From Candidatus Latescibacterota bacterium (GTDB lineage: Bacteria; Latescibacterota; UBA2968; GCA-2709665): a stretch of 64,000 nucleotides of DNA. The DNA is taken from NCBI GenBank assembly GCA_965222075.1, contig OZ244937.1, positions 1,664,001-1,728,000 of the forward strand, in the 5' to 3' direction. Numbering within the stretch: the stretch's first letter is position 1; every line of letters starts with the position of its first letter. The position numbers were made by a program, and so were the translations under genes. Positions 5,009 to 22,859 of this stretch are shown here, one piece after another. The notes under the pieces are model-generated. The model saw nothing but the letters and a program-made list of their open reading frames with translations. It had not been told where the DNA came from and did not search any database.

Positions 5009-5040
5009 GTTTCAATCCTTGTTCTGGTGGAAGATTCCCA
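5009..5040 (-). CRISPR. Orphan degenerate copy of the main type I-B repeat
   Basis: 25-nt exact match GTTTCAATCCTTGTTCTGGTGGAAG, then ATTCCC (versus TATTGCCC). Confidence 0.85.
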
Positions 5041-5247
5041 ACGGTGCGGGACAGTTGGCCGTGGCCACGGGTGAAGTGGACGCCTACGGCGGCAGCCGTG
5101 CTGATTCTGGTTGGCGGCAGTCGCTGAACGCTGGTGGAGGCTGTGCACCAATGTGCCGCAGACGGTGCGAGGGGTACCGCCACGATGCTATTGGTGTAGC
5201 GACCGGTATTCGACTTCACCGTACGTTCACGGCGTCCGGTGGCCCGC

Positions 5248-6111
5248 TCAGCCGCTATCAGCGTTGGGCTTCACCTCGATGATCAGGCGGCAGTGGTCGC
5301 TTGGTCCCCATTCGTGGACATCGTTCATCGCCCGCACCGACACCCTTTCGTGGAACCCGCGCGATGCGAATGCGTAGTCCAATTGATTCGCCGCCGTTTC
5401 CGGTCCGTCTCCTGGCTTGTAGTACGTCGGCACATTTTTCGTGTCGGACGGCACGTCGTCTGGCGCAGTTCCTGCGGGCCGACCGTGAGAAGCCTGCGGT
5501 CCCAGAAATTCCAGTCCGAGCACCTTTATTCGTTTCCAGACCGTGCCTTCGCGTTCCGGCAGTGACAGCCTATTGCCGGTCGCCCCGTAGAACATGTTCA
5601 GATCGCCCGCCGCCAGAATCCTGTGTCTGGCCGGGTTGGCGTGACCGATGAAAGCCGACAGGTCCGAAATGATTCGATGTGCCGAGGCGTCGGAGTAGCC
5701 AACGCTCCAACTGCTCCTGGTAGACGGATGAGGCTTCAGCCAGCGCGCGTACATCGAGACCGCGACGAAATCCTCGTGATCGCTGTCGTGCGGGAATACC
5801 TTCGCGGCGGCGATGGTCCCGATACCGCTGACGCCAATGGCGTCCGCTCCAAGCTCGCTGATGGGTGGCACCTGCTGGTACGGCTCGACCGTGATCCGAT
5901 CAGACAGCTTCACGACCAGCGGCCAGCGGTCGTACAACTGTCGGTTCCAAAACACCGCATCTTCGCATTCGACTAAATGCACCAGGTCGCCGGGTGGACT
6001 CCCCGCTTCCTGCAGGAGTGCCAGGTCCGCGTCGCCATCGTCCGCCATCTGCACCAGTTCACGCCACGGCTGCGCCCGTTTGCTGATGTTCCAGCTTACC
6101 ACCTTGATCAT
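5248..6111 (-). CDS. Endonuclease/exonuclease/phosphatase (EEP) family protein
   Basis: KVVSWNI, LALLQEA, ILAAGDLN, QLDYAF, PSDH motifs; GAGGAGG RBS. Confidence 0.9.
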   Translation of the reverse strand: MIKVVSWNISKRAQPWRELVQMADDGDADLALLQEAGSPPGDLVHLVECEDAVFWNRQLYDRWPLVVKLSDRITVEPYQQVPPISELGADAIGVSGIGTIAAAKVFPHDSDHEDFVAVSMYARWLKPHPSTRSSWSVGYSDASAHRIISDLSAFIGHANPARHRILAAGDLNMFYGATGNRLSLPEREGTVWKRIKVLGLEFLGPQASHGRPAGTAPDDVPSDTKNVPTYYKPGDGPETAANQLDYAFASRGFHERVSVRAMNDVHEWGPSDHCRLIIEVKPNADSG

Positions 6112-6138: not shown

Positions 6139-9100
6139 GTTTCAATCCTTGCTCTGGTGGAAGTATTGCCCTGAGCTTACGGCCTGGTCCCAATCAATAC
6201 AATCCAAGTCCATTACTTCCGGATGAAAAACCTCGGACCAGGGGCTGAGCTTACGGCCTGGTCCCAATCAATACAATTCAAGGGCGTTTCAATCCTTGTT
6301 CTGGTGGAAGTATTGCCCTGGGGCTGGCCGATGTGATCCGGGTGGATTTCACCGGCATGGGGTTTCAATCCTTGTTCTGGTGGAAGTATTGCCCTGGGGA
6401 AACACCAAGACGGAAAGCCGATGCATCGGTTCGATGTTTCAATCCTTGTTCTGGTGGAAGTATTGCCCTGGGGCTGATGAGCGCCCAACCTGAAAGGAGG
6501 ACCGGTGCAAGTTTCAATCCTTGTTCTGGTGGAAGTATTGCCCTGGGCGCCCTGGTCGACTCCATTCTGACCGGCGTGCCGGGTTTCAATCCTTGTTCTG
6601 GTGGAAGTATTGCCCTGGGGATTCCCGGGCGCGTTCGTGTATGCCGATGCGGTGTCGTTTCAATCCTTGTTCTGGTGGAAGTATTGCCCTGGGCGTTTGC
6701 GCATGTGGGGGGGAAAATCCACATGGAAACTAGTTTCAATCCTTGTTCTGGTGGAAGTATTGCCCTGGGATGGGCTTTACCATCACAAGTATGTCTTGCG
6801 TCTATGAAGTTTCAATCCTTGTTCTGGTGGAAGTATTGCCCTGGGATGGGCTTTACCATCACAAGTATGTCTTGCGTCTATGAAGTTTCAATCCTTGTTC
6901 TGGTGGAAGTATTGCCCTGGGAAGCAGATCCTTTACGTTTACGCGAAGGCAATCGAAGTTTCAATCCTTGTTCTGGTGGAAGTATTGCCCTGGGATCATC
7001 CCAACAACCATTGAGATAATCTAAGTATGCCTTTTCAACCGTTTCAATCCTTGTTCTGGTGGAAGTATTGCCCTGGGCGTACGCATCTTTGGGCAGCTTG
7101 TCCATGGCGCCTAAAGTTTCAATCCTTGTTCTGGTGGAAGTATTGCCCTGGGTCCCTGTTCGTTGCGGCCTCTGCCTCTACCCCAGCAGAGTTTCAATCC
7201 TTGTTCTGGTGGAAGTATTGCCCTGGGCCCGGGCCCGCCGGTGGGGGATGATGCTCCTCTGTGACATCCACCAGTTTCAATCCTTGTTCTGGTGGAAGTA
7301 TTGCCCTGGGAACGACTGCATACACTTTCAGGCTTTGTTCGGGTCCAGGTTTCAATCCTTGTTCTGGTGGAAGTATTGCCCTGGGAGCTCCCCGGAGGAA
7401 GCGTTTCGCTGGCCGTATCAGGGTTTCAATCCTTGTTCTGGTGGAAGTATTGCCCTGGGAATTCGGGAGCGTACTTGCCGTCCGACAGCACGATATCGGG
7501 TTTCAATCCTTGTTCTGGTGGAAGTATTGCCCTGGGAGCCGTAGCCTGCCCGCCGTGCCTCACTGTCGGCGTTTCAATCCTTGTTCTGGTGGAAGTATTG
7601 CCCTGGGCAGGTCGGACGCCTGCGCCCGCACCGCAAGCCTCTCCGAGTTTCAATCCTTGTTCTGGTGGAAGTATTGCCCTGGGTGTGGGCATCAAGGTCT
7701 TTGGGACCGGCCTCTGGATGTTTCAATCCTTGTTCTGGTGGAAGTATTGCCCTGGGTCGGACGCCATAGACATCAGCAATATCGGAACAGAGTTTCAATC
7801 CTTGTTCTGGTGGAAGTATTGCCCTGGGTTTCGACGATGAGGTTCAGGTAGACGCGGATGCTTTTTGTTTCAATCCTTGTTCTGGTGGAAGTATTGCCCT
7901 GGGCCAATAATTTCCTCTTCATTTCACACCTTCCTCTGTTGTTTCAATCCTTGTTCTGGTGGAAGTATTGCCCTGGGCGTTGGTTACGGGCGTCCCGTCG
8001 GGGTAACGGGCACTCTGTTTCAATCCTTGTTCTGGTGGAAGTATTGCCCTGGGATTAGAGTGCGTCAATCGGATATAGACGGGGGATGTTTCAATCCTTG
8101 TTCTGGTGGAAGTATTGCCCTGGGTCGGGGAATTCGCCCATGTAATGGTTCAAATAAATTGGTTTCAATCCTTGTTCTGGTGGAAGTATTGCCCTGGGCA
8201 GAGCACAAAACCGCCCGAAGGCAAGGGAATACTTGGGTTTCAATCCTTGTTCTGGTGGAAGTATTGCCCTGGGTGGCTGGCCTGTCGTCCGTCGTTGTTC
8301 GGAAGTAGAGTTTCAATCCTTGTTCTGGTGGAAGTATTGCCCTGGGCTTGGCAGGGCTGGGCAAGATACGGCGCGGCATGGCGAGGGTAGAGTTTCAATC
8401 CTTGTTCTGGTGGAAGTATTGCCCTGGGCCGTTGGGTGTCCTCCGCCCCGAATAGTGTGCATCCATACGTGTTTCAATCCTTGTTCTGGTGGAAGTATTG
8501 CCCTGGGTCTTCGGGCAGGCCCTTGTTCCGCCTGCCGACGATAACGGGGTTTCAATCCTTGTTCTGGTGGAAGTATTGCCCTGGGTCTTCGGGCAGGCCC
8601 TTGTTCCGCCTGCCGACGATAACGGGGTTTCAATCCTTGTTCTGGTGGAAGTATTGCCCTGGGGGGAGCGCTTCTCCGGCCAGGTCCCGATCGTCACCAT
8701 TGAGTTTCAATCCTTGTTCTGGTGGAAGTATTGCCCTGGGACGCGTCGGCGGATGTTGGCCTGGAGCTCAAGCACAACGTTTCAATCCTTGTTCTGGTGG
8801 AAGTATTGCCCTGGGCAGCACCTGGCCGTTGTGTTTTTTTAGCCGTGACAAGTTTCAATCCTTGTTCTGGTGGAAGTATTGCCCTGGGTTCCCCGCCTCC
8901 GGGCTCATCGCTTTTCATAGCTGCTTGTTTCAATCCTTGTTCTGGTGGAAGTATTGCCCTGGGCAGGATGACCCCTCACGATCTGTGCACCCAGGCCATA
9001 GTTTCAATCCTTGTTCTGGTGGAAGTATTGCCCTGGGAAGAGGGCAAGGGCAAGGGTGGGGATGATAACGGCGGTTTCAATCCTTGTTCTGGTGGAAGTA

Positions 9101-12100
9101 TTGCCCTGGGGAGGCTAAGGAGGCGTTGGAAAAGGATCTGCCTACGGAGTTTCAATCCTTGTTCTGGTGGAAGTATTGCCCTGGGGAAAAACGGTTGTCA
9201 CCCTGCCAGGTGATCAATGGTTGTTTCAATCCTTGTTCTGGTGGAAGTATTGCCCTGGGCGCTTTCGGGTCGAACAACGCCCTGGTCAAGCCCGTGTTTC
9301 AATCCTTGTTCTGGTGGAAGTATTGCCCTGGGTAGTCGAACTCGGCTTCGGACAGCAAGTTGAGATGAGGTTTCAATCCTTGTTCTGGTGGAAGTATTGC
9401 CCTGGGTAGTCGAACTCGGCTTCGGACAGCAAGTTGAGATGAGGTTTCAATCCTTGTTCTGGTGGAAGTATTGCCCTGGGTTTGTTCCTTTATGGTATTA
9501 TTTGACTATGGAAACAGTTTCAATCCTTGTTCTGGTGGAAGTATTGCCCTGGGTCTGTGAAACTGGGCTTTGAGGCCCGGCAGGATAAGAGTTTCAATCC
9601 TTGTTCTGGTGGAAGTATTGCCCTGGGCGGCATCGTAGGTATTGGAGTAATCCCATCCAAAAGGTTTCAATCCTTGTTCTGGTGGAAGTATTGCCCTGGG
9701 CAGGTTAAAGGGCACGATCAAGGACGCCCTGGAGAAGCAGTTTCAATCCTTGTTCTGGTGGAAGTATTGCCCTGGGCCTCCGCGATAGGGTCGACGCTGA
9801 GGTGGAGATCTTGATGTTTCAATCCTTGTTCTGGTGGAAGTATTGCCCTGGGACCAGGCCGTAGCCTGCCCGCCGTGCCTCGGAGTCGGGTTTCAATCCT
9901 TGTTCTGGTGGAAGTATTGCCCTGGGCCACCGGTCAACCGTGTCTCTACGCTGCGGCCCACAAAGTTTCAATCCTTGTTCTGGTGGAAGTATTGCCCTGG
10001 GTCGCCACCTCCTGCGGTTGTGCGCCAGTCACCCCAGAGTTTCAATCCTTGTTCTGGTGGAAGTATTGCCCTGGGAACAATGGCCTCCGGCGAGGTCTCC
10101 CACTCGCTAACGTTTCAATCCTTGTTCTGGTGGAAGTATTGCCCTGGGTCGCCCGATTGCGACGCAGCGAAAAACCGCCCGACCTTGGTAAGGGGATTAC
10201 GTTTCAATCCTTGTTCTGGTGGAAGTATTGCCCTGGGAAGAGGCCACGCGGGCCCAGGCCAGCGCAGCGATAAAGTTTCAATCCTTGTTCTGGTGGAAGT
10301 ATTGCCCTGGGGCCAATGCAGCACAGATGATTGCGAAAGCTAAAACATCCATGTTTCAATCCTTGTTCTGGTGGAAGTATTGCCCTGGGGAACTTATTTG
10401 CTTGTTTCTGGTCTATTATTCAGCGTGTTTCAATCCTTGTTCTGGTGGAAGTATTGCCCTGGGGGGGCCCCAGGCCCGCCGTCCCTCACCCTTTTCTCAG
10501 TTTCAATCCTTGTTCTGGTGGAAGTATTGCCCTGGGGTACATACCCATCTTCTACATTGGACGCCCGATCTCTGTTTCAATCCTTGTTCTGGTGGAAGTA
10601 TTGCCCTGGGGTACATACCCATCTTCTACATTGGACGCCCGATCTCTGTTTCAATCCTTGTTCTGGTGGAAGTATTGCCCTGGGTCATTGGCAGGATCGA
10701 CCTCATCCTTGCCTATGAGAGGTTTCAATCCTTGTTCTGGTGGAAGTATTGCCCTGGGCATCGCCTGCCTTCAGCTCAAATTGGACGGGGCCTTGAAGTT
10801 TCAATCCTTGTTCTGGTGGAAGTATTGCCCTGGGTTCTTTCCATCCCCACTCTCTCAGAGGATAGCGCTGGAGTTTCAATCCTTGTTCTGGTGGAAGTAT
10901 TGCCCTGGGACCAGTGAGGGAAGTTTCCCATCTCCGCTTACCAGTAGTTTCAATCCTTGTTCTGGTGGAAGTATTGCCCTGGGCCCCCTTATGCTGGAGT
11001 GATGGGATGCGTGATATAACGTTTCAATCCTTGTTCTGGTGGAAGTATTGCCCTGGGCCCCAGTCGCCCGGGGCGCATTTTCGTTGCCTTAGCTAATGTT
11101 TCAATCCTTGTTCTGGTGGAAGTATTGCCCTGGGCGCCACATTCGCATATATATTCACAATCACACATCATAGTTTCAATCCTTGTTCTGGTGGAAGTAT
11201 TGCCCTGGGATCGGAAATCGAGCAGAATATCATATCGTGGATGGACGAGTTTCAATCCTTGTTCTGGTGGAAGTATTGCCCTGGGAACGGTTGACGCGAG
11301 GTGGCACGTTCGCACAGTGGCGGGTTTCAATCCTTGTTCTGGTGGAAGTATTGCCCTGGGTGCCTGGCGAGAGGCTTGATGCGATAGGCATGGAGTTGTT
11401 TCAATCCTTGTTCTGGTGGAAGTATTGCCCTGGGTCTTTGTTGAAATCTCCGGCAGGCCTTATGTTCTCCAGTTTCAATCCTTGTTCTGGTGGAAGTATT
11501 GCCCTGGGCGCAGAGTAACAGGCCGCAGGCGATCAAGCTCCACGAGTTTCAATCCTTGTTCTGGTGGAAGTATTGCCCTGGGAGCTTAAGGCCGGCCAAG
11601 CATGGGGGCCGAAATATCAGTGTTTCAATCCTTGTTCTGGTGGAAGTATTGCCCTGGGCGCAGGGCAGGCAGTGAGCGCGCCCGGGCGCTGGGGTTTCAA
11701 TCCTTGTTCTGGTGGAAGTATTGCCCTGGGACCTGCGGCAGGCCTTTCTAGGGGACGCCGATGTATAAGTTTCAATCCTTGTTCTGGTGGAAGTATTGCC
11801 CTGGGCACCAGGTCCGGGTGATTATACTGCGTTCCATTTGGTTTCAATCCTTGTTCTGGTGGAAGTATTGCCCTGGGCGCTTCAAATCAACATCGACGGT
11901 CTCTGCATCAGGGACGTTTCAATCCTTGTTCTGGTGGAAGTATTGCCCTGGGCTTGTCACTGTAATCCGCGCCGATCATCTCCCATTCGTGTTTCAATCC
12001 TTGTTCTGGTGGAAGTATTGCCCTGGGGCAGACGAATCCGAGCTACAAGGACATAGCGGAAGATGGTTTCAATCCTTGTTCTGGTGGAAGTATTGCCCTG

Positions 12101-12695
12101 GGCCGGGGGGGCTCTCCTCCCCGGCTTCGTCGTCCGGGTTTCAATCCTTGTTCTGGTGGAAGTATTGCCCTGGGAAAGAGAGGGACGAAGCACAAGGCCA
12201 GCTAAATATTTGTTTCAATCCTTGTTCTGGTGGAAGTATTGCCCTGGGCTTGATCCAGAACTGGGCAGGTGTTCCCGGACGGTAGAGTTTCAATCCTTGT
12301 TCTGGTGGAAGTATTGCCCTGGGAATATGCCGTCGGCGCTTGGAGGTACCACCAATATTTGTTTCAATCCTTGTTCTGGTGGAAGTATTGCCCTGGGCGT
12401 TTATCCCTTTCGTATCCGTACACAGTACCCCCGAATGTTTCAATCCTTGTTCTGGTGGAAGTATTGCCCTGGGCAGGCCAATACTTTCCAGGCCGGGGAG
12501 ATGAGTAAGGTTTCAATCCTTGTTCTGGTGGAAGTATTGCCCTGGGGGTCGGGCCGGTGTTCCATGTCGAGCACGGTACCGCGTTTCAATCCTTGTTCTG
12601 GTGGAAGTATTGCCCTGGGCCGCCTCCAGTTCATTTTGTTTCTCACGCCTGGCATCATGTTTCAATCCTTGTTCTGGTGGAAGTATTGCCCTGGG
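6139..12695 (-). CRISPR. CRISPR array with a 37-bp repeat (transcribed strand CCCAGGGCAATACTTCCACCAGAACAAGGATTGAAAC); about 86 intact repeats plus one degenerate terminal repeat; spacers 34-52 bp
   Basis: Repeats counted by eye from 6286 to 12659. The degenerate repeat at 6139 marks the trailer. The ATTGAAAC end and AT-rich leader next to cas4 give the minus orientation. Confidence 0.99.
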
Positions 12696-12867: not shown

Positions 12868-13464
12868 TTAGACGCAGATATTTTTGTAGCAACAGTCACC
12901 ACATTTGGCGCGGTGAGGTGTTTTTTTTGGCAGTCGCCCAGTTTGAATGATGTCAAGAATTTCAGCTACAATTTTCTTTGCGATGCTCTCTTCAGCCTCT
13001 CCGATAGGGACTTCTACCAGATGGCTACCGCCTCGAATGTAGGCAACATATCCCCGGGTCACGCGCTTTTGATAGGCTTCGCGGGTCAAGAGGCCATAGA
13101 GTGTAATTTGGATGCGATGGGTTTTGAAAGCATGTTCTCGGTAGGGTGAGTATTTGTAATCTAAAGGTGCGAAGGTCCCATCTCGCAATGTCAAAACTTC
13201 GTCCACAACCCCGCGCACACCAAGTTCGGGCGATGCCAGATACACATTGAGATCTCGATTGACAACGCCGATTTTCTTGCGCAAGTAAAATCGGTTTTCT
13301 TTTTCTCGGCGTTTGTGGACTTCTCGTCCTTTGAGCACCTTGAAACGACGGTCTTCAAACTGCGGGATGTTGAGCACGTTCATGTAGTATGTGAAACGCG
13401 GACAGTATACATGCTCAATCACCTCTGACGGCGTGATCATGATTGTTGTTTCAGTATCGCTCAC
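12868..13464 (-). CDS. cas4: CRISPR-associated exonuclease Cas4
   Basis: YCPR, GVVDEV..PLDYK, C-terminal CGDCCYKNIC Fe-S cysteines. Confidence 0.95.
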   Translation of the reverse strand: MSDTETTIMITPSEVIEHVYCPRFTYYMNVLNIPQFEDRRFKVLKGREVHKRREKENRFYLRKKIGVVNRDLNVYLASPELGVRGVVDEVLTLRDGTFAPLDYKYSPYREHAFKTHRIQITLYGLLTREAYQKRVTRGYVAYIRGGSHLVEVPIGEAEESIAKKIVAEILDIIQTGRLPKKTPHRAKCGDCCYKNICV

Positions 13465-13766
13465 AAGAACAAACTCCTCACATCGTCGGTGACGAGTTTG
13501 GGGTCAAAGGCCTGACCTTGAAGGATGACTTTGCGAAAGTCCATAGCACACATGGGAAAAATGTAAACGCGATCGCTTTCAAGATCAATGTGGTCTTCAA
13601 TGCGCATCGAAAGTTCATCGAGGCGGTTGTGTTTGACTGTGCCGAGGAAGACGGATTTTTGAATGCGGTAGAGGCCCGCTTCTTGACAGGCTTTGACAAC
13701 GCGACGACGGCTTTTGTTGTCGGAGATGTCGTAAAGGACCCAGGTGAGAGATTCATCGGATTTCAT
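13461..13766 (-). CDS. cas2: CRISPR-associated Cas2
   Basis: WVLYDISD..R, RIQKSVFLG, DRVYIFPMC. Confidence 0.95.
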   Translation of the reverse strand: MKSDESLTWVLYDISDNKSRRRVVKACQEAGLYRIQKSVFLGTVKHNRLDELSMRIEDHIDLESDRVYIFPMCAMDFRKVILQGQAFDPKLVTDDVRSLFL

Positions 13767-14761
13767 GGGACAGTTTCCTCTGTGTTCGGATCTTTTGCAA
13801 GCAGATCATTGGCGATGCGGTGCAGGTCAAACTGGATGCTGTCTCGCCGCGTGATATTGCGGCCCCGGTAGCGGATAGCCTCGTCGAGACACGCCGTGAA
13901 TGCTTCGATGAGCACCGCTTTGCCCTGTTTGTTCAGGGTGAAGCCATTTTTTAAGCTGTCGAACAGATCTTGTTTGATTTTTCGCGCGGAAAAAAGACTG
14001 AGAATTGTTTCGTCGGCCCAGATGCGATATTGTTCGATGAGATCAAAAACAAGGGATGGTTTGTTATAGTGGTCGGTGTGGATAAAGCCAATGTAGGGAT
14101 CGAGCCCTGAGAGCAAACAGGCGCGTTCGACCACGCCATAAAGGATGCCATAGGCGTAATTGAGCAGGCAGTTGAACGGATCTTTGGCCGGATTGCGGCT
14201 ACGACCTTTAAACCGATAGTGAGTCGGTAAAAGCAGAGATACAGCAGCCCAATAGGTGCGCCCGGCGCGACCTTCCAGACCGAGCAAACTCTGGCGCGTG
14301 GTATCGATATTCCCTGTGAGGTCCTGCATTTGCTCTTTGAGGGTTTTGAGACTGCCAATGGCTTCGGTAAGCTGCGCTGAAAGCCGCGTACGACGGTCGC
14401 GCATTCGCGTGAGCAATGCAATCTGATTGTCAAATTTGCGCCCGACCCAGCCAAGGGCGAGTTGCATGCCGAGGTCGGTTTGTGCAGCCACAAGTTGCAA
14501 CCGGCGAATGGCAGTTGTGGAACCCGGGCGTCCGTGCCACACACGGCCAAACGGATCGCCGTACTTATCGAGAAAGAGGATGTCGATGTTCTTTTCCACA
14601 GCAAGTTGCACTGCATCGGACGAAAACGCCGCGCCCGTTGAAATGAGAATGGAACGCACTTTGCGAGCGGAAATTTCAGTCGATTGCCCATTCACCTTGA
14701 CCAGAAACAATTCCCCACGCCGACTCAAATACGCGCCATAGGTGTTGAGTACGAGTTGCAC
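13763..14761 (-). CDS. cas1: CRISPR-associated integrase Cas1
   Basis: LGLEGRAGRTYW, DPFNCLLNYAYGIL, GLDPYIGFIH, SLVFDLIEQYR. Confidence 0.97.
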   Translation of the reverse strand: MQLVLNTYGAYLSRRGELFLVKVNGQSTEISARKVRSILISTGAAFSSDAVQLAVEKNIDILFLDKYGDPFGRVWHGRPGSTTAIRRLQLVAAQTDLGMQLALGWVGRKFDNQIALLTRMRDRRTRLSAQLTEAIGSLKTLKEQMQDLTGNIDTTRQSLLGLEGRAGRTYWAAVSLLLPTHYRFKGRSRNPAKDPFNCLLNYAYGILYGVVERACLLSGLDPYIGFIHTDHYNKPSLVFDLIEQYRIWADETILSLFSARKIKQDLFDSLKNGFTLNKQGKAVLIEAFTACLDEAIRYRGRNITRRDSIQFDLHRIANDLLAKDPNTEETVP

Positions 14762-14775
14762 AATTGTCCCTCTGT

Positions 14776-15441
14776 TTAAATTTCACGCATCAAACCGAAG
14801 CCGTTAGATGTTAGTTTACCGATGCCAATACCAGTAGGGAGAATCATATTGGAAACAAAGGATACTTTTACACCCTTAAAAACGACACCGTGATGTTTTA
14901 ACGATAGAAGTGAGAAGTTAAGCACGTGAGTCATTAGACGTTCTTGGAGATAAACGCCAACCCCTTTACATAATGAGAGATAGTTTCCATTAAGAATTTT
15001 CTCAAAAAGCTTTCTCCGATTTTCAACGTTCGACTCTTCTTGAAATATTGCATGATTCTTTTCATTAAGCGCCAGCCAAGGTGTAATTGAGCGATAACCG
15101 ATCAGATTGTATGATAGTCCGATAGCTACTATTTCGTCTTCCAGTTCTGCGCCCATAATCTGATACTGAATGCCTCCAACTCTGAGTGTATGACCCTGGT
15201 TGTAAATTTCTTGCAGAACTTGAAGGCCGTCATCGAAGGAAATGAGTTGGGGGAAGTTATTCAAGACGATATAGCGAACTCTGGGAGAACGATAGTCAAA
15301 TTGATCCCCCTTATGGTTGTGTAATACTGGCCGATTTGGAAACGCACCTGTTATAGCTTTTCGAAGTTCCGATCCTCGATGTTTAAACGGGCGGTCGGTG
15401 TAGATTTTTAATCGTCGAATATGTATCACATTTTCTGACAT
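14776..15441 (-). CDS. cas6: CRISPR endoribonuclease Cas6 (Cas6b-like)
   Basis: C-terminal G-loop GIGIGKLTSNGFG; LHNH and TPWLALN motifs; start taken at MSENVIH just after the cas3 stop. Confidence 0.85.
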   Translation of the reverse strand: MSENVIHIRRLKIYTDRPFKHRGSELRKAITGAFPNRPVLHNHKGDQFDYRSPRVRYIVLNNFPQLISFDDGLQVLQEIYNQGHTLRVGGIQYQIMGAELEDEIVAIGLSYNLIGYRSITPWLALNEKNHAIFQEESNVENRRKLFEKILNGNYLSLCKGVGVYLQERLMTHVLNFSLLSLKHHGVVFKGVKVSFVSNMILPTGIGIGKLTSNGFGLMREI

Positions 15442-15442
15442 C

Positions 15443-17824
15443 TCAATTTCCAATGATGAGCACTCCTGAATTATACGGATCTTCTTCCGCTTTATACCCA
15501 AACCTCTTATCATATCCGAGCTTGGCATCCAACATACACAGTTCGTCAACAACATCTCTTGCATACACTTGTACAATTCGCTCCATCAAAGCAGCACGGA
15601 TTTTATAGAATTCCTTTCTGCGTTTTACTGGATTCACGATTTCTCTGATTCGAAGATATTGATCCCAAATTTCCTGATCATCACTATCTTGGACGATATA
15701 ATAGGATTGTCGGGGTAATTCTTCAATAAGCTGAAAACGATCTTCTACTTCTTTAAATTGTCCACAGGCCAACAGACGATCAATGGGTTCTTCGCTGTTA
15801 TGCGTGCGGTCGTAAACCATTTTGAAATAAGACTCCCCCAAGTCCAAAAACTCAGATTCAGCGACTTCCTCAAATTGGTTCAAAAGCTCTTGCGTTGCCC
15901 CTATCAATACTGGACTATAAATCCGCGTGAACGTTATCTCTTTCTCATCTGTTAAAGACCAGACCCTTACAATCCCTCCATCACCGTCTCCATGCCGATT
16001 ACAACGACCCGATGTTTGAATAATAGCATCTAGCGGTGCAAGATCTCTTTCAATCCGATCTACACTCAGATCAACGCCAGCTTCTATCAATTGTGTCGTA
16101 ATGACCAAAACGGGCTGATCCGCATCCAGTGACTTGCTAATGTCTTCAATCCGAGCGTTACGATCTTTAGGCGTTAGAAGTGCTGAAAGTGGGCAGATAA
16201 GAAATTCTTCTATGTTTACCTTTTTTTCAAATATTTCTGTTAGCTCACCTACGAGCCTTCGATAGTTGACCACAATCATGCGGCTGCATTTTGGATTTTG
16301 ATGAATTTCTTCGACAATCTCACTGACAAAACACTCAAGAGACGTATTTTCTTTTGCACGATTTACAAGATGCATACGCGATAGTTTTTGGTAATATTCT
16401 GGATGATTGGACAACAACTCCCTGGACATATCGGGCAAAAAAATCAACGGTTTTGTGGCTGTCATCAGTATGAAACGCGTTTCAAAACACCGGCTCATCA
16501 CTTTGAATATATTACGAATAGCTTGCCAGTATTTCGGAGGAATCGCCTGTACCTCATCGAGAATGACAATGGCTCTACGCAGCGTTGGCAAGCGTTTGAG
16601 ATTTCGATTTCTACCTGTGAAAATCGTATGGAGAAATTGATAAAATGTGGTTACTACAATTTCTGATTGCCACGTCTCAACAAAAAGTTCGGACCCATCA
16701 TGATCAAACTCCGAGTCTGAAGAGCAGTATTTCATATCTGTGAGATGGTGATGTTTCAAGAGCAAGTCCGTTGTTTCAGACAGTCCTCCGAGTTCTAATA
16801 CTTTTCGATAAACATCGTGGTTTTGATCAATAATTGCGGTAAAAGGCAAACAATAGATGATCCGCGGGTTTTCTTGATATACTTCTCGCAACTCATGACG
16901 TAAATGAAGTGCTGCATCCAAAGCGGTCAAGGTTTTTCCAGACCCAGTCGGTGCTGTGAGTGTGAATAGTTTCTCATCTAAATGAGCAGATAATTCGCGT
17001 AAAACATCATCTCTAACGCGATCTCTTATTTCATCAAGGGGTGATGGTTTCTGATCTTGTTTTAAGTGTATCAGATAGTTGTGTACAAGATCATTGGGCA
17101 GTTCTAAGCGATTAAATTCTGTTTCCCCTGTTGCAGTATGGATTTTATCCATTTGCAAAAGACTGCCAAATCCAAACAAGAAATCTACTGTCCGGTCGAG
17201 TTGCTCAAGACAAATATCCTTTTCATTACTAGTGAAAGCTTTCCTAAGACGAAATTGAGGTATGGCCTCCATAGTTTGTCGAAGAACAGATTCGTTAAGA
17301 TCAGGTACTTCAAAGTGAAGGCCGAACTCAGGCAAAGTCTTTCTTAGCCATCGTGTAATGCCTGAGAGATCCATGCTGTCAATTTGGCGAGCAAATGTCC
17401 CTTGTGGCCCCTGGTCGTCCCGAAGATGGCCTTTGGCTTCGACAAAATAATCGGACCACGACTTTTGTAGATTACCATGGTGTCTCATAACAGAGGTAAT
17501 CACCGAAAGCTGGAATTGATACGCGGTCTTCTGATTTGGTGCTTGAACGCTCTGACTGATCAGCCAACCAATAATCGCAGAAACAAATGAGTGGTTGGAC
17601 AGTTCAGATCTTTCTCCTTTACAACCCGGCTGGACGCGCTCCTGAAACCAAAAGGTCGCTTTGCCCAAATCATGGACGAGTGCAGCCAGCAGTGCAGCTT
17701 GCGCTGGCAAAGGCCGACTGTCCCCCCACAATTGGTTTACACCTCTGGCGACTTCTTTAAGATGAGCTTGCAAAAAATCGTCTGGAGGATGCGCCAAGCA
17801 TTCAGAAAAAGAGTATGTGGTCAT
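15443..17824 (-). CDS. cas3: Cas3 HD nuclease-helicase
   Basis: HDLGKA, APTGSGKT, ILDEVQ, MTAT, TQLIEAGVD, QTSGRCNR. Confidence 0.97.
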   Translation of the reverse strand: MTTYSFSECLAHPPDDFLQAHLKEVARGVNQLWGDSRPLPAQAALLAALVHDLGKATFWFQERVQPGCKGERSELSNHSFVSAIIGWLISQSVQAPNQKTAYQFQLSVITSVMRHHGNLQKSWSDYFVEAKGHLRDDQGPQGTFARQIDSMDLSGITRWLRKTLPEFGLHFEVPDLNESVLRQTMEAIPQFRLRKAFTSNEKDICLEQLDRTVDFLFGFGSLLQMDKIHTATGETEFNRLELPNDLVHNYLIHLKQDQKPSPLDEIRDRVRDDVLRELSAHLDEKLFTLTAPTGSGKTLTALDAALHLRHELREVYQENPRIIYCLPFTAIIDQNHDVYRKVLELGGLSETTDLLLKHHHLTDMKYCSSDSEFDHDGSELFVETWQSEIVVTTFYQFLHTIFTGRNRNLKRLPTLRRAIVILDEVQAIPPKYWQAIRNIFKVMSRCFETRFILMTATKPLIFLPDMSRELLSNHPEYYQKLSRMHLVNRAKENTSLECFVSEIVEEIHQNPKCSRMIVVNYRRLVGELTEIFEKKVNIEEFLICPLSALLTPKDRNARIEDISKSLDADQPVLVITTQLIEAGVDLSVDRIERDLAPLDAIIQTSGRCNRHGDGDGGIVRVWSLTDEKEITFTRIYSPVLIGATQELLNQFEEVAESEFLDLGESYFKMVYDRTHNSEEPIDRLLACGQFKEVEDRFQLIEELPRQSYYIVQDSDDQEIWDQYLRIREIVNPVKRRKEFYKIRAALMERIVQVYARDVVDELCMLDAKLGYDKRFGYKAEEDPYNSGVLIIGN

Positions 17825-18515
17825 CGCCTATCTCGTATGCTTGGTCGGTTTCAACGGTTATTGAACTTCCATCCTCCGCGACAACGACCTCCCGATAATC
17901 TACAACTGTTCTGTCTGGTTGCATTTGCGCCGGTACTCGATATCGGACATAGCGCCTACCCTTTTCGTATCTACAATTTTCTTCGGGATCAGGTACAACT
18001 GAAGCAATGTTATATTCTGTCCTCGAAAGTGGTTGGCCTTCAAATACGCCGACAAAGGCAACATCCGCAATACATTGTGCAAGGCCAAGAGATGGCGTAT
18101 ATACTGTCCTGCCCGCTTGAAGTTGGCTTTCCAGGTTCTGCATTGCTTCATCTATGGCTTCCGCGATATAAATCCGAAAAGCAGGTTCAAGAAGGAATTC
18201 ATAGGGATATTGGCCCCTTGTAGCGCGACTGGTACTGTCCGGCACTAGGCGGAAATATTTATTGCCTTCGTGCGTGAGTACCAGGTTTAACCCTGTTCGA
18301 TATTTGCGTGTTGGTTTGAGTAGACGAACGCCAACGCGTACCTTCTCCCACCCAATTCTCGACAGATACTCTTCTTTTCCATAGCCCAAGATAGCCCCTA
18401 TAAGGCCAAGAACTGTCGGCGGTGGTGGAAAAGGATAAGTTACAGGGGAAACGGGCGCATACGGTTTACGAAAATGCCCATAAGGACCACTCACATCGAA
18501 CACGATTGTATGCAT
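17802..18515 (-). CDS. cas5: Cas5 (type I-B)
   Basis: VFDVSGPYGHFRKP..TYPFPPPPTVLGLIGAILG, YTPSLG. Confidence 0.93.
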   Translation of the reverse strand: MHTIVFDVSGPYGHFRKPYAPVSPVTYPFPPPPTVLGLIGAILGYGKEEYLSRIGWEKVRVGVRLLKPTRKYRTGLNLVLTHEGNKYFRLVPDSTSRATRGQYPYEFLLEPAFRIYIAEAIDEAMQNLESQLQAGRTVYTPSLGLAQCIADVAFVGVFEGQPLSRTEYNIASVVPDPEENCRYEKGRRYVRYRVPAQMQPDRTVVDYREVVVAEDGSSITVETDQAYEIGDDHILFF

Positions 18516-18519
18516 TAGA

Positions 18520-19503
18520 TCACCTGATGTTCAAGGGAGTTGGTTGCAGGTCACGACTTACAGCCAGTGATGTAAAATCGCCTTCTTCGTCCCCATCTCT
18601 AAGTTTAAGGCGAGAATCCTGAACAATCTTCAACCCTACAATATCATCTTTCAATATATCAAGACCATCGAGTAATTGTGCGATATTGACTTCATAGTCA
18701 TCAATCGAACGAATAGCTATATCCTCTTTTTCGCTCTTTAGAGAGATTCGACCGGAGAGGTCGCCTAAGCGTCGGCCATTGGTGTAGCGTAACACCAATA
18801 ACAAAAGGGGTTGATGACCCATCTTGGATCTGCTGATTAGTGATTCAGTCCCTTTCCAGAGTCCTTCTAACAACAACGAGACATCTTCTTCTGATAAATC
18901 AGTTGTTTGCGCTGCAACTTCGTTGACAACACCATACGCAGATATGAGAGCATATGGAAGAATATGGTCTTCACGAAAGGATTTTTGAGTAGAATTCTTC
19001 TTGGATGCAAAGCCTGCTGTACCTTGTATAAGCTGCGAACTTACACGATGCAATGAGCGATTAAATCCTGAAAATTGGACTGGGCCCGTAAGCCGTATAG
19101 ACGACTTTTTTTTGCCAAATTCCACTGGCAGGGTTGCTCCAAAAAGCCTCGCATCAATACAGTGGTCCAAGATGGTATTGCGAACTTTCGAGACCATTGT
19201 TGTAATTTTATCGTCTTCGGTCACACCCGCTTTACCAAGAAAATCATCGCATCGACCTTTTCCATCCTGGAGATACCCATCTTCGTCTTCTGTATCTCTG
19301 ACAAGGATTTCAAGACCTTTGGTTTGAAACAAATAATCTCGCACTGTTCTTTTGATCCTCACGTCGGTTACAGTTGCCACGCCCGTTTCTGGATCGGTAC
19401 GAGGTTTGTTTTCGTCCAGAGGATCACCGTTGGGATTACAGTCTTTTGTTTCATACAGAAACAGAATTTCCATACGGTTTTCGATTGAATTTCGGTCAGC
19501 CAT
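18520..19503 (-). CDS. cas7: Cas7/Csh2 (type I-B)
   Basis: CNPNGDPLDENKPR, VTDVRIKRTVRD, DARLFG, TGPVQF. Confidence 0.95.
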   Translation of the reverse strand: MADRNSIENRMEILFLYETKDCNPNGDPLDENKPRTDPETGVATVTDVRIKRTVRDYLFQTKGLEILVRDTEDEDGYLQDGKGRCDDFLGKAGVTEDDKITTMVSKVRNTILDHCIDARLFGATLPVEFGKKKSSIRLTGPVQFSGFNRSLHRVSSQLIQGTAGFASKKNSTQKSFREDHILPYALISAYGVVNEVAAQTTDLSEEDVSLLLEGLWKGTESLISRSKMGHQPLLLLVLRYTNGRRLGDLSGRISLKSEKEDIAIRSIDDYEVNIAQLLDGLDILKDDIVGLKIVQDSRLKLRDGDEEGDFTSLAVSRDLQPTPLNIR

Positions 19504-19520
19504 TTTACATGTCTCCTTCT

Positions 19521-21293
19521 TTAATCTTCGGTTAAGACAGCATTTTTATCTGTCTGGCGGATTTTATCTGCGAGACTCAAGCCCAGTGTGAAAGCAAAGG
19601 TCGATTCTTCATCAGAGATATTCCATTCTTTGCCACAATTAACCCACGCTTCTGCGAGTTGGGGATCAAGAGTTTTAGCTACCCAACCAAAGCGTGCATA
19701 TTGGCGCAATTTAGTTTGCGCTTCTGGATAAATGTGCTGGAGTTTCCGGCGATCCATTTTTACACCCTGAACTTTTTTGAGGAATGGTGTCCGTTTGTCG
19801 AGGTCCTGATATTGAGCGGATGCCACTGTTTTAACATAACATCCAGTTAAAAAAGCAACAGCCTTTTCCTGGAGATCAAAAAACTCAGGATGAGATTTAA
19901 TATACTTTCCATACACATTGTCTTGTTCTGCCATCGTCACACCTCCTTTTGGTGGGGTTAAAATCTGAAGAAGACTCAGAAAACGATATGTCGCCCATGC
20001 ATCGCGAACGGTAAATACGGCTTTGTCCGGTTCTCTTTTGTAGGCAGTGAGAATAACGGATACAGCGTCTCGAAGGAAGACTTCACGAGCAATTTTGTTT
20101 TTACCACCGGAAAAAATACGGTCGACATAAGCCAGAAATTGTTTCTGGCTACTTTTGTCTGATCGTGTGCCAGTAAATTGACGTAATGTTTTAAGTGTAA
20201 AACCGTAAGTCTGATTTTTGCTGAAATTTAAGAAAGAATCGAGATCAATTTGGTTTTTTATGCAATAAATTTCTTGAATGCGTGATGGTAGAATTTCATG
20301 AATCTCGGCAGTAATTCTCCAGGCTGCATTCTTTTTTTGATAAAAAACCATGGATAACGCAATGGTATCCTTGTACCCAGAAACTTCTGCCAGTGCTTCC
20401 AGAATCTCGTTCTCGGAGTATGTAATTGTCCTTAAGGCATCCTTTTTAAGTGAAACACGTTCTCGCTTCTCCAATTCTTCAATGACATATTTGCTCAGTT
20501 CCGGGTTGCGAATCTGGGGCAAAAGTAAATATGATTCTCCAGCCAGACTAAATTGGAGATTTGTGTTGACGTAATTCCAGCCTTTTGATACAGCAAGCAT
20601 ACAGAGATCACATACAGGAAAATTTCGTGTCGCAGCACTATTATTCATGCCTCCCGTGATTAAACCTCTTTTGTCGAGATTGTAGCACGAGATCAATGAG
20701 AAATTTCCAAATACTTTTTCGGCTTGCTTTCCACACACAGAGCAAGCTTGATTTTTGGCTTCTAAAGGGAGTTTTTTGACACGACCATACCGGGAGAGTA
20801 CTTCAGAGATCGCAAATTGTTGGAAATGATTGTCTTTGTAGAATGGATCTAGTTTGGTACTTTCAACCCAAGCCAAATACACGAAGGGATATTTTTCGCG
20901 TGTATCAAGCTCTTCAAGCGTATTTTCAATATGCTCAGCGATTTGGATGTCATCATATCCGTCCAGAATATTATCTACCCGGTCTTGAATGGGTTCAACC
21001 TGGGGTGATTGGCTAAAAGCCTTCAAACATTTGTGAAGTCTTTGTGCGACTTTCTGCGGACTACCCGCAAATTTGGAGACTACCAATGGGTCAAATCCAT
21101 TAGGTGCTCCTTTGATATAGATCACATCTTTGCTACCTTCTGTTATTTTAATACCCTTGTATTGACCAGTTTCATCGAAACAGACAGCCAATCCATAATA
21201 GTATGAAGGTTCCAAGCCTTCATTCAAAAGTTTGATGCGAGCACTTTCATTTCCATAAAGAATTTGAGAAATATGAAGTAGTCGTTCGAACAT
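19521..21293 (-). CDS. cas8b: Cas8b/Csh1 large subunit (TM1802-like)
   Basis: CSVC...NFPVCDLC zinc motif, YNLDK.G, C-terminal Cas11-like AFLTG...FTLG; first gene of the operon. Confidence 0.88.
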   Translation of the reverse strand: MFERLLHISQILYGNESARIKLLNEGLEPSYYYGLAVCFDETGQYKGIKITEGSKDVIYIKGAPNGFDPLVVSKFAGSPQKVAQRLHKCLKAFSQSPQVEPIQDRVDNILDGYDDIQIAEHIENTLEELDTREKYPFVYLAWVESTKLDPFYKDNHFQQFAISEVLSRYGRVKKLPLEAKNQACSVCGKQAEKVFGNFSLISCYNLDKRGLITGGMNNSAATRNFPVCDLCMLAVSKGWNYVNTNLQFSLAGESYLLLPQIRNPELSKYVIEELEKRERVSLKKDALRTITYSENEILEALAEVSGYKDTIALSMVFYQKKNAAWRITAEIHEILPSRIQEIYCIKNQIDLDSFLNFSKNQTYGFTLKTLRQFTGTRSDKSSQKQFLAYVDRIFSGGKNKIAREVFLRDAVSVILTAYKREPDKAVFTVRDAWATYRFLSLLQILTPPKGGVTMAEQDNVYGKYIKSHPEFFDLQEKAVAFLTGCYVKTVASAQYQDLDKRTPFLKKVQGVKMDRRKLQHIYPEAQTKLRQYARFGWVAKTLDPQLAEAWVNCGKEWNISDEESTFAFTLGLSLADKIRQTDKNAVLTED

Positions 21294-21323
21294 GATTTTT
21301 TCCTTTTAAAATGGAGATTATAA

Positions 21324-21422
21324 TTCTAAATCCTTGTTTTAATGGATTTTATGATATATATTTTAACTTAACAGAACCATACCATGTTTCAATCCTTGTT
21401 TTGATAGTGGACTTCCAATGAT
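21324..21422 (-). ncRNA. crRNA-like RNA (CreR/CreA-type mini-array): pseudo-repeat, 25-nt spacer, pseudo-repeat
   Basis: Pseudo-repeats at 21324-21360 and 21386-~21422 keep the AATCCTTGTT core. Spacer ATGGTATGGTTCTGTTAAGTTAAAA matches 21491-21474 at 16/18. Confidence 0.8.
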
Positions 21423-21492
21423 TTGCCACAAGTTATGGAATTCATCACCAGTTCTGTCATTGGAGATTCTATTTTAACATAACCATACAATT

Positions 21493-21521
21493 AAGATAAC
21501 CGTTTCCGGGTAAAATGTCAA
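21493..21521 (-). promoter_or_regulatory. Sigma70-type promoter of the mini-array/cas operon
   Basis: TTGACA (21521-21516), 17 bp, TATCTT (21498-21493). Confidence 0.8.
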
Positions 21522-21590
21522 GAAAGACCTGAATAGTACTGCATGGCAGTACCGCAATTGATTCCCCGCCAAAATCTTCCATGAACTTTT

Positions 21591-22559
21591 TTACTTCCCC
21601 TTTCCATACATTTTCCCCGCTGCAATCATATCCTCTGCAATCACCTGCCTCAGTTCCTCCGGCTCCAGCACCTCGCAGTCCGGTCCCCAGCCCCGAATCC
21701 ACGGCTTCATCTCCAATGTATGCTTCACTCCCAGCCGCATCCGGCACCCGCCGTCCGGCTCATCCGTCACCTCCACCACGCCCGGCCAGTCCGATTCCCG
21801 CACCCGGTACGCCACCCTGGCTGAAAACCGCAACACCACCTCCACAACATCGTCGCCGCCCATAACGCCCCAGGAATGTTCTAAATAATCGTACGGATCG
21901 AATCCATCCTGCACTTCGTAGACCGTCTCCAGCAGCGTGGCCCGTTCAATCCGCTCCACTTTGAACTCTCGAATATTCCGGCGCAAATGGTCATAACCGA
22001 TGACATAACAGGCATATCCGATCGGGGAAGGCTCGATAAAATAGGGATCAAAGGTGCGCCTGGTGGTTTTTTGGGTCTGTGGATTGTGATAAGTCAACCG
22101 CACCTGCTTGCGTTCGGACCAGGCGCGGGTAAGGGTTTCCAGAACACGAATATAATCGCGATGCCGTTTGCGCTTGTCAGCGACTGCGGCCGTTCGGGTG
22201 ATATGTTCGCCTACGGACTCCGGCATCGCACTGGCCAGCTTCTCTAAGGCGGAAACAACATTGGGATTGTGTTTATCGCTGTGTGCCGAAAGCAGGCGTG
22301 CGGCCAGATAAAGCGCCAGGGCCTCGTGCAAACGCACCCGGACCGTGGTCAAATACCGATCCTTCAGCACCCCGAACCGACCCTCATCCTCCCAGATCGG
22401 TGTACCGGACGCCTCCAGCGACTGAAGATCCCGGTACACAGTACTTCGATGCACCCCAAAACGGTCCACAATCTCCGAAACCCTCCGTCCGTCCGCGGAT
22501 CGGAAGAGAAACGTCTCAATCGCTATCAGCCGCTCCACACGGCTCTGTGTTCGTCCCAT
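21591..22559 (-). CDS. HTH-WYL-WCX transcriptional regulator
   Basis: FGVHRSTVYRDLQSL HTH; RTFDPYFI..YVIGYD..REFKVERI WYL; WIRGWGPDCEVLEP WCX; GGAGG RBS before the ATG at 22559. Confidence 0.93.
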   Translation of the reverse strand: MGRTQSRVERLIAIETFLFRSADGRRVSEIVDRFGVHRSTVYRDLQSLEASGTPIWEDEGRFGVLKDRYLTTVRVRLHEALALYLAARLLSAHSDKHNPNVVSALEKLASAMPESVGEHITRTAAVADKRKRHRDYIRVLETLTRAWSERKQVRLTYHNPQTQKTTRRTFDPYFIEPSPIGYACYVIGYDHLRRNIREFKVERIERATLLETVYEVQDGFDPYDYLEHSWGVMGGDDVVEVVLRFSARVAYRVRESDWPGVVEVTDEPDGGCRMRLGVKHTLEMKPWIRGWGPDCEVLEPEELRQVIAEDMIAAGKMYGKGK

Positions 22560-22592
22560 CAAAATCCTCCACCCGTCAATATACACCCCACC

Positions 22593-22611
22593 TGTCGCAA
22601 CTACTGCGACA
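22593..22611. promoter_or_regulatory. Palindromic candidate operator upstream of the WYL gene
   Basis: TGTCGCA-actac-TGCGACA about 34 bp upstream of the start. Confidence 0.6.
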
Positions 22612-22859
22612 CCCGATATATTTTTTTGGCCTTCATCACATTTTCTACCTCTCCGGGGGGATGAAGGACCGTGTAACAAGGAGGGGGGTGACGCGCGAGC
22701 GCCTGCACGCGCTACCGAATTGCTGGAAAAACGCTTACGACATTCGGTTCACAATCTCACGCGCACGGGGTCGGCCATAGATCAGCCCACCTTGTAAGCG
22801 CGTACGGGCAGCGAATCCGTTTGGCTGCATAAACTCATGCGAACTTATGAAATCGACCA

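Follow-up and report, generated by a model that had tools for sequence, protein, structure and literature searches.

A probable CreR-type mini-CRISPR directed at its own promoter in a type I-B CRISPR-Cas locus of a Candidatus Latescibacterota bacterium

In a subtype I-B CRISPR-Cas (clusters of regularly interspaced short palindromic repeats, with associated proteins) locus of a Candidatus Latescibacterota bacterium, the intergenic region that precedes cas8b contains a miniature CRISPR: two degenerate repeats flanking one short spacer, the first 18 nt of which match the promoter region lying upstream of them. The DNA analysed, hereafter the window, is a stretch of 64,000 nt (contig OZ244937.1 of assembly GCA_965222075.1, positions 1,664,001 to 1,728,000), and coordinates refer to it unless stated otherwise. 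We consider it probable that the element is a CreR-type (Cas-regulating RNA) mini-CRISPR of subtype I-B (Csh1/Csh2/Cas5b) that guides Cascade to its own promoter. The case is built on the anatomy of the element, a non-random match between spacer and promoter, a homologous element in a relative, co-variation of spacer and target, and mismatches that fall on every sixth position in two other loci.

The intergenic region before cas8b is 297 nt long and holds promoter, target, first degenerate repeat (psiR1), spacer (psiS) and second degenerate repeat (psiR2), arranged as follows.

21493..21521, minus strand: sigma-70-like promoter, TTGACA (21521-21516), 17 nt, TATCTT (21498-21493), with 10 of 12 consensus matches
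21492..21494, minus strand: candidate protospacer adjacent motif (PAM) TTA, adjoining the target on its 5' side (strand identical to psiS) and overlapping the end of the -10 box
21474..21491, minus strand: target (protospacer) ATTGTATGGTTATGTTAA, just downstream of the -10 box and roughly across the expected transcription start
21423..21473, minus strand: leader of 51 nt between target and psiR1, with an open reading frame (ORF) of 23 codons
21386..21422, minus strand: psiR1, first degenerate repeat, ending AAAACAAGGATTGAAAC at 21402-21386
21361..21385, minus strand: psiS, nominal 25-nt spacer ATGGTATGGTTCTGTTAAGTTAAAA, GC 32%
21324..21360, minus strand: psiR2, second degenerate repeat, upstream of cas8b

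Much of this layout had been proposed in an earlier reading made without database searches (the sequence-only reading). When the minus strand was read again all of its coordinates and strings proved correct: the TTGACA-17-TATCTT promoter, the first pseudo-repeat with its intact 8-nt 5' handle, the 25-nt spacer, and the second pseudo-repeat followed by cas8b. The promoter is the sole sigma-70-like site called between 21100 and 21800, and is presumed to drive the leader, the mini-CRISPR and the cas8b operon. Folding of the whole leader is no better than that of shuffled sequences (z -0.07).

Both degenerate repeats derive from the repeat of the locus itself and flank their one short spacer beside the cas locus. 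On the operon strand the array repeat reads CCCAGGGCAATACTTCCACCAGAACAAGGATTGAAAC, and it closes at the 3' end with ATTGAAAC, an octamer of the handle type. Over its last 15 nt (21400-21386) psiR1 is identical to the end of the array repeat (15/15), the 8-nt 5' handle ATTGAAAC included; TCCA is also kept, the upstream half has diverged and the loop is 3 nt longer. psiR2 stands in exact register, with TCCA (repeat positions 15-18) and AACAAGGATT (positions 23-32) kept up to the expected Cas6 cut; past the cut, ATTGAAAC has decayed to ATTTAGAA, which matches the handle at 5 of 8 nt. The first repeat therefore keeps the 5'-handle bases, and the second the side that stays on the mature RNA. TCCA (positions 15-18) and AACA (positions 23-26) are the same in all of 28 repeat variants from related arrays (positions 26-37 were fixed by the way the variants were collected), and all family-invariant positions are intact in the pseudo-repeats of the window. 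The TCC...GGA stem, described in the sequence-only reading as kept in both pseudo-repeats, indeed comprises 5 bp in the first of them and 6 bp in the second (z -2.5 for psiR2).

Scanning the genome for the repeat-end 15-mer with up to two mismatches gave eight sites outside the array: four exact (psiR1 and three solitary repeats, described below), one solitary repeat with one mismatch, and three unrelated sites with two mismatches. An Rfam scan in E-value mode matched both pseudo-repeats to CRISPR-DR7, psiR2 at 26.4 bits (E 0.012) and psiR1 at 19.5 bits (E 0.83), scores that fall below the family's gathering score of 37.

The target lies 106 nt upstream of psiS on the same strand. Over the first 18 positions of psiS the two are identical at 16, with mismatches at positions 3 and 12, and TTA stands in front of the target; the alignment and both mismatches agree with the sequence-only reading, which had left the mismatch at seed position 3 unexplained. 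Mononucleotide shuffling of the 297-nt intergenic region, repeated 20,000 times, never gave 16/18; the maximum was 15 (in 13 shuffles). No other non-self site on either strand of the 5.36-Mb genome matches psiS[1-18] as well as the target does; the next-best sites have at least two mismatches outside the sixth positions. Identity continues beyond the 18-nt core, 21 of the first 26 positions being identical, a longer match than in the relatives described below. The GC content of psiS (32%) compares with a mean of 56% for the 85 spacers of the array, so that psiS is like the promoter region, not like DNA captured from invaders.

One comparison is with a related genome, G023, whose Cas8b is 79% identical to that of the window. 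It carries a homologous psiR1-psiS-psiR2, in which both pseudo-repeats align with those of the window and the spacer is different. Its psiS, ATGGTTTGTTTGTAAATG, matches a target, TTA|ATGGTATGTTTCTAAATA, that lies 1046 nt upstream; the two disagree at exactly positions 6, 12 and 18 and are identical at all 15 non-sixth positions. With up to one mismatch allowed, no place in this 4.7-Mb genome fits the pattern other than psiS and target themselves. A TTGACA-17-TATGTT promoter with a TG extension is called at the end of a WYL gene, which lies upstream of the element as in the window, and the target overlaps the -10 of this promoter. Between the two genomes psiS differs at positions 6, 9, 12, 14, 15, 16, 17 and 18, and the target at 3, 9, 12, 14, 15, 16 and 17. 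At each of the five differing non-sixth positions of psiS (9, 14, 15, 16 and 17) the target has changed to the same base, whereas positions 6, 12 and 18 vary independently in psiS and target. The element is thus conserved in a related locus with co-variation of spacer and target: whatever the mutational path, of which an indel may be part, comparison of the two loci indicates that spacer and target stayed matched. Spacer-promoter covariation in homologous loci had been named as a check in the sequence-only reading, and G023 provides it.

A gene of the DUF3800 family lies between the targeted promoter and psiR1 of G023 (L018 16162-17001, minus strand). On the evidence of this arrangement it would be co-repressed with the cas operon.

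A third element is found in a metagenome locus, L010, where Cas8b is 34% identical to that of the window and the mini-CRISPR sits 611 nt before cas8b. Its psiS, CACGTTTAATTGGGAAAC, has its match, TTG|CACGTATAATTTGGAAAG, a short way upstream; here too 6, 12 and 18 are the mismatched positions, and 15 of 15 non-sixth positions are identical. A TATAAT box occupies protospacer positions 5-10, a placement like that of the -10 box in G023, and a -35 TTGACA sits 15 nt before it. The mini-CRISPR lies between a MazE-like gene before it and a PIN gene right after it; over positions 7355-7944 of L010, the genes for MazE-like antitoxin and PIN toxin are split by the TTGACA-15-TATAAT promoter and the mini-CRISPR. 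Since the spacer matches the promoter between these two genes, the PIN toxin would be silenced by Cascade, and the arrangement, so far as its sequence tells, resembles CreTA with a protein as its toxin.

Type I effectors flip out every sixth base of the guide and leave it unpaired, a property used by Shmakov et al. (bioRxiv 10.1101/2023.03.03.530964). Selection for Cascade pairing predicts mismatches of just this kind, confined to sixth positions. With three mismatches placed at random among 18 positions, the chance of their falling exactly at 6, 12 and 18 would be 1 in 816 per locus. Together, the co-variation and the every-sixth mismatches provide sequence-level evidence that Cascade-type pairing, and not a protein operator, is under selection; the CreR/CreA-type reading offered in the sequence-only reading appears to be the best explanation.

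Variation within the population was available from contigs of four DNA runs, from four studies, that cover the region. One, possibly the source of the window, agrees with it throughout. The remaining three depart from it at 21467 and 21473; one differs also at 21480 and 21511, and another at 21257. Position 21480 is target position 12, a sixth position; 21473 (position 19) and 21467 (position 25) fall beyond the 18-nt core, and 21511 lies in the promoter spacer. psiR1, psiS, psiR2 and target positions 1-11 and 13-18 are unchanged throughout. These variants are consistent with the regulatory model, although the changes are too few for significance alone.

Read as a CreR-type element, the mini-CRISPR suggests the following sequence of events, which we infer from its layout. 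Transcription from the promoter at 21521-21493 would produce a leader carrying psiR1-psiS-psiR2 and would run on into cas8b and the remaining genes as far as cas4. Cas6b, encoded in the same operon, would cut both pseudo-repeats and release a crRNA-like (CRISPR RNA-like) product consisting of the 8-nt handle ATTGAAAC, the spacer and a hairpin-bearing 3' handle. Cascade loaded with the psiS RNA would then bind at 21491-21474, where the site flanked by TTA reaches from the -10 box's edge over the transcription start. With pairing limited to about 18 nt, we propose that no full R-loop forms and that Cas3 is not licensed or recruited; this logic of repression by limited pairing has been shown for CreA, CreR, an I-F1 mini-array and tracr-L. 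The bound complex would repress both its own operon and its own guide. The 85 crRNAs of the array would compete with the psiS RNA for Cascade and so relieve repression, and expression would be expected to rise with demand and upon removal or inactivation of Cascade, as in the CreR logic described by Liu et al. (bioRxiv 10.1101/2023.03.10.532045).

Several points weigh against this reading. Most direct is the mismatch at seed position 3 of the window target (crRNA G opposite target-strand A), one of the two mismatches in the 16/18 match, which is present in the contigs of all four DNA runs. psiS of the window, psiS of G023 and the G023 target all have G at this position, so the window target represents the derived state. 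In the I-B system of Haloarcula hispanica single changes at CreA-target seed positions 5 or 10 derepressed both promoters; set beside the position-3 mismatch, this means that repression in the window genome may be weak or lost, and the relatives probably repress more strongly. Identity over a longer stretch (21/26) might offset the seed mismatch, although the match at position 25 is lost in three of the four runs. The single promoter call is not above shuffled sequences (shuffle mean 1.6 sites), and the L010 promoter went uncalled because the scan requires a 16-18-nt spacer where L010 has 15. The stem of the real array repeat is marginal (3 bp, -1.0 kcal/mol) and no better than shuffles.

The distribution of the element is also patchy. 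Among ten distinct loci with at least 188 nt available upstream of cas8b, a mini-CRISPR is present in three (the window, G023 and L010) and was not found before cas8b in G029, G062/L006, L008, L012, L013, L014 and L017; L011 duplicates L010, is too short upstream and was left out of the count. G029 is as close to the window as G023, yet is without promoter, target and psiR1, and only a decayed psiR2 remains; its WYL gene is kept and is followed by unrelated genes. In G062/L006 a repeat-like stretch lies behind a TTGACA-17-TACTAT promoter, where neither an array nor a convincing spacer-target match was found.

Finally, the 85 array spacers yielded no usable protospacer from which to derive the PAM. 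The three targets are flanked by TTA (window), TTA (G023) and TTG (L010), which are candidate PAMs; PAMs of the TTC or TTN type occur in I-B systems. A search of the 85 spacers against their own genome returned one partial match and two short ones. The partial match belongs to the spacer at 12547-12582, second from the leader end, and covers 33 of 36 positions on the same chromosome about 830 kb from the window, with flank GCG and mismatches at 2, 5 and 36. Nothing usable came from 724 distinct spacers of related-repeat arrays compared with the same genome. The whole array had no match in a phage collection, two of its spacers gave 0 matches each in IMG/VR, and among the matches listed for the array against 168 genomes of the phylum there were only repeat-driven ones to other arrays.

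The seed mismatch leads to the first of three rival explanations, namely that the element is a decaying relic: a once-working CreR in which mutation of the target seed abolished Cascade binding, leaving the operon controlled by the WYL regulator or constitutive. The derived state of position 3, its presence in every run and the derepression caused by single seed changes in Haloarcula all speak for decay, G029 demonstrates that complete loss is possible, and a WYL regulator gene stands directly upstream. Against decay speaks the pattern of variation, in which psiR1, psiS and psiR2 are unchanged in four runs while four changes lie within 45 nt around the target. The family-invariant repeat positions, all intact here unlike those of the decayed psiR2 of G029, also speak against it, as does the length of the window match, which could offset one seed mismatch. 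We regard a relic as rather unlikely.

Less likely still is an addiction module of the CreTA kind, in which the leader would encode a small toxic RNA or peptide silenced by the psiS RNA, such that a cell losing Cascade would be killed or arrested and regulation of cas8b would be a by-product. Relatives do carry cargo in the same or the next slot (DUF3800 in G023; PIN after and MazE-like before the element in L010), and CreA elements of Haloarcula repress both creT and cas8; but the 51-nt leader, read by eye, offers only the 23-codon ORF, with no recognisable ribosome-binding site, no rare-codon run and no toxin-like feature, and no toxin family was detected beside the element in the window. 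The remaining possibility, that the two similar 18-mers are sites for the WYL regulator or another protein factor and the repeat-like flanks are incidental, seems to us very improbable. The window, G023 and G029 each have a WYL-HTH gene immediately upstream, and paired similar sites near a promoter are typical of operators. Several facts speak against an operator: in three loci one copy begins exactly where the 8-nt handle of repeat-derived sequence ends, in two of them the mismatches fall at 6, 12 and 18, L010 has no WYL gene beside the element, and the copies in G023 are 1046 nt apart.

Within the CreR-type reading a more specific scheme can be drawn. The mini-CRISPR would be no gene of its own: Cas6b would cut it out of the cas8b mRNA, in whose 5' leader it lies, under the very promoter that it silences, forming a closed loop of guide, enzyme and effector; the stretch between promoter and cas8b would be a landing slot whose cargo is silenced by Cascade, as with the DUF3800 gene of G023 and the PIN toxin of L010, split from its MazE-like partner; and the change at position 3 in the window would be an evolved loosening that accommodates 85 crRNAs. 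We offer this scheme tentatively and think it doubtful as a whole.

The locus to which the element belongs is a complete subtype I-B locus, with the gene order cas8b-cas7-cas5-cas3-cas6b-cas1-cas2-cas4 on the minus strand.

21591..22679, minus strand: HTH-WYL-WCX regulator gene, directly upstream of the element and on the same strand
21305-21301, minus strand: ribosome-binding site AAGGA of cas8b
19521..21293, minus strand: cas8b (Csh1 / TM1802 family, by family matches), first gene of the operon
18520-19503, minus strand: cas7, operon member
17802-18515, minus strand: cas5, operon member
15443-17824, minus strand: cas3, operon member
14776-15576, minus strand: cas6b, mid-operon
13763-14761, minus strand: cas1, operon member
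13461-13766, minus strand: cas2, operon member
12868-13464, minus strand: cas4, operon member
6139..12695, read on the minus strand: CRISPR array, 86 repeats of 37 nt, leader at the cas4 side

NCBIfam identifies the first three proteins as Cas8b/Csh1, Cas7/Csh2 and Cas5b. Assignment to subtype I-B (Hmari type) is given by Pfam and NCBIfam matches that exceed their cut-offs and by a repeat of 37 nt with ATTGAAAC at its end. The system appears intact: no effector gene is missing, cas6b is there too, and 84 of the 86 repeats are identical, the far terminal repeat at 6139 having two changes. No terminator was called between the HTH-WYL-WCX gene and the promoter and element, and the regulator is a possible second layer of control over the operon. 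The cas genes have a GC content of approximately 39-53% compared with 56-65% in the flanks (34-53%, approximately, across 12868-21590, the cas genes with the intergenic region), which suggests horizontal acquisition from a donor of lower GC.

The 85 array spacers comprise 81 distinct sequences. Four pairs of identical neighbours, at 6770-6884, 8508-8626, 9333-9443 and 10537-10647, represent duplicated repeat-spacer units. Beyond the far, downstream end of the array are four solitary repeats, 1.1-5.8 kb apart, located at 5009-5045 (minus strand) and at 729, 2323 and 5006 bases before the start of the window. The last 15 nt are intact in three of the four, the other having one mismatch. After each of those at 5009-5045 and -2323 comes a 40-nt sequence, almost identical in the two cases, that contains a GC-rich hairpin. 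Among these repeats lie genes for Exo_endo_phos (5248-6111), Schlafen AlbA_2/HATPase_c_4/Fic-like_C (3035-4600) and PIN (1008-1415) proteins. The solitary repeats could be further crRNA-like elements guarding cargo, or fragments of the array split by insertions.

Cas8b of this kind is rare among the genomes searched, being found in 3 of 61 close-relative genomes and 4 of 168 genomes of the phylum; the two closest Cas8b loci are labelled Candidatus Latescibacterota. Searching genome contigs with the single Cas8b protein gave no further relatives, and searching them with a three-row Cas8b alignment gave only the two loci already known. Of two metagenome contig searches for Cas8b the first returned none and the second ten loci at 32-44% identity; a plasmid collection held one remote match (24% identity). 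Twelve Cas8b homologues at 75-80% identity exist. Large arrays that share the repeat 3' half TCCA..AACAAGGATTGAAAC occur in G002, G012, G015, G021, G024, G026, G030, G039, G046 and others. Since genomes of the same order have such repeats and no match to the window Cas8b, the repeat family also serves other effector types.

If our reading is correct, it extends autoregulation of Cascade by crRNA-like guides to an I-B system of a bacterium whose candidate phylum has hardly been studied. The loci also constitute a natural experiment, with two related genomes whose different spacers and targets have changed in step and a distant locus mismatched only at every sixth position. Three states are represented: in G023 the seed is perfect, in the window it carries a mismatch, and in G029 the element is lost. 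They could be used to gauge how much autorepression type I-B systems tolerate. For annotation, the long AT-rich intergenic region before cas8b would be a regulatory mini-array, neither a second array nor junk.

CreR/CreA-type mini-arrays are a published and widespread class, experimentally established for I-B, I-E, I-F1 and V-A, and the element fits that class. In the literature searched, which left the supplements of the two main papers outside its scope, the phylum was not found named together with CreR, CreTA, mini-array or crRNA-like terms. The closest counterparts are the CreR elements of I-B, I-E and V-A described by Liu et al. (bioRxiv 10.1101/2023.03.10.532045). Shared with these are the degenerate psiR1-psiS-psiR2 in a cas intergenic region and the pattern of repeat decay, in which psiR1 keeps the 5'-handle bases and psiR2 the 3'-handle side. 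Also shared are a partial match of psiS to a PAM-flanked site (here a candidate PAM) at the promoter of the effector operon and the absence of an obvious toxin partner. The I-B lineage (Csh1/Csh2/Cas5b) is that of the Haloarcula system. What differs is that the mini-CRISPR has its target upstream, within the one called promoter able to transcribe the guide, so that guide and cas genes would share one self-repressed transcript; that the host is a candidate-phylum bacterium; and that seed position 3 is mismatched in an element known from sequence alone. A target within the guide-making promoter, and cargo genes behind the guarded promoter in relatives, may be particular to the present system.

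CreTA of Haloarcula hispanica is of the same subtype, and its CreA, as is proposed for the present element, is a degenerate Cascade-guiding crRNA before cas8 whose partial pairing to the cas8 promoter represses it. CreA is paired with a divergently transcribed toxic RNA, CreT, whereas in the window neither a recognisable toxin family nor a plausible small toxic ORF adjoins the element; L010, with a PIN toxin gene behind its mini-CRISPR, stands nearer.

The regulatory mini-arrays of Shmakov et al. (bioRxiv 10.1101/2023.03.03.530964), drawn from a database of the complete genomes of 2021, have the same two repeat-like sequences and a spacer partly complementary to promoters of cas8 or cargo genes. 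They have the same PAM-flanked layout (here with a candidate PAM), PAM-adjacent seed and expectation that every sixth position is unpaired. According to these authors, approximately 13% of archaeal loci with only I-B carry such a mini-array; the I-B examples they describe are near cas6, whereas here the operon starts with cas8b and cas6b is in the middle. A more distant parallel is tracr-L, which acts on cas9 as a natural guide with short complementarity (11 bp) to the promoter of its own effector and achieves autorepression without cleavage; it differs in belonging to type II, with a single-protein effector, a guide derived from tracrRNA (trans-activating crRNA) and no processing by Cas6.

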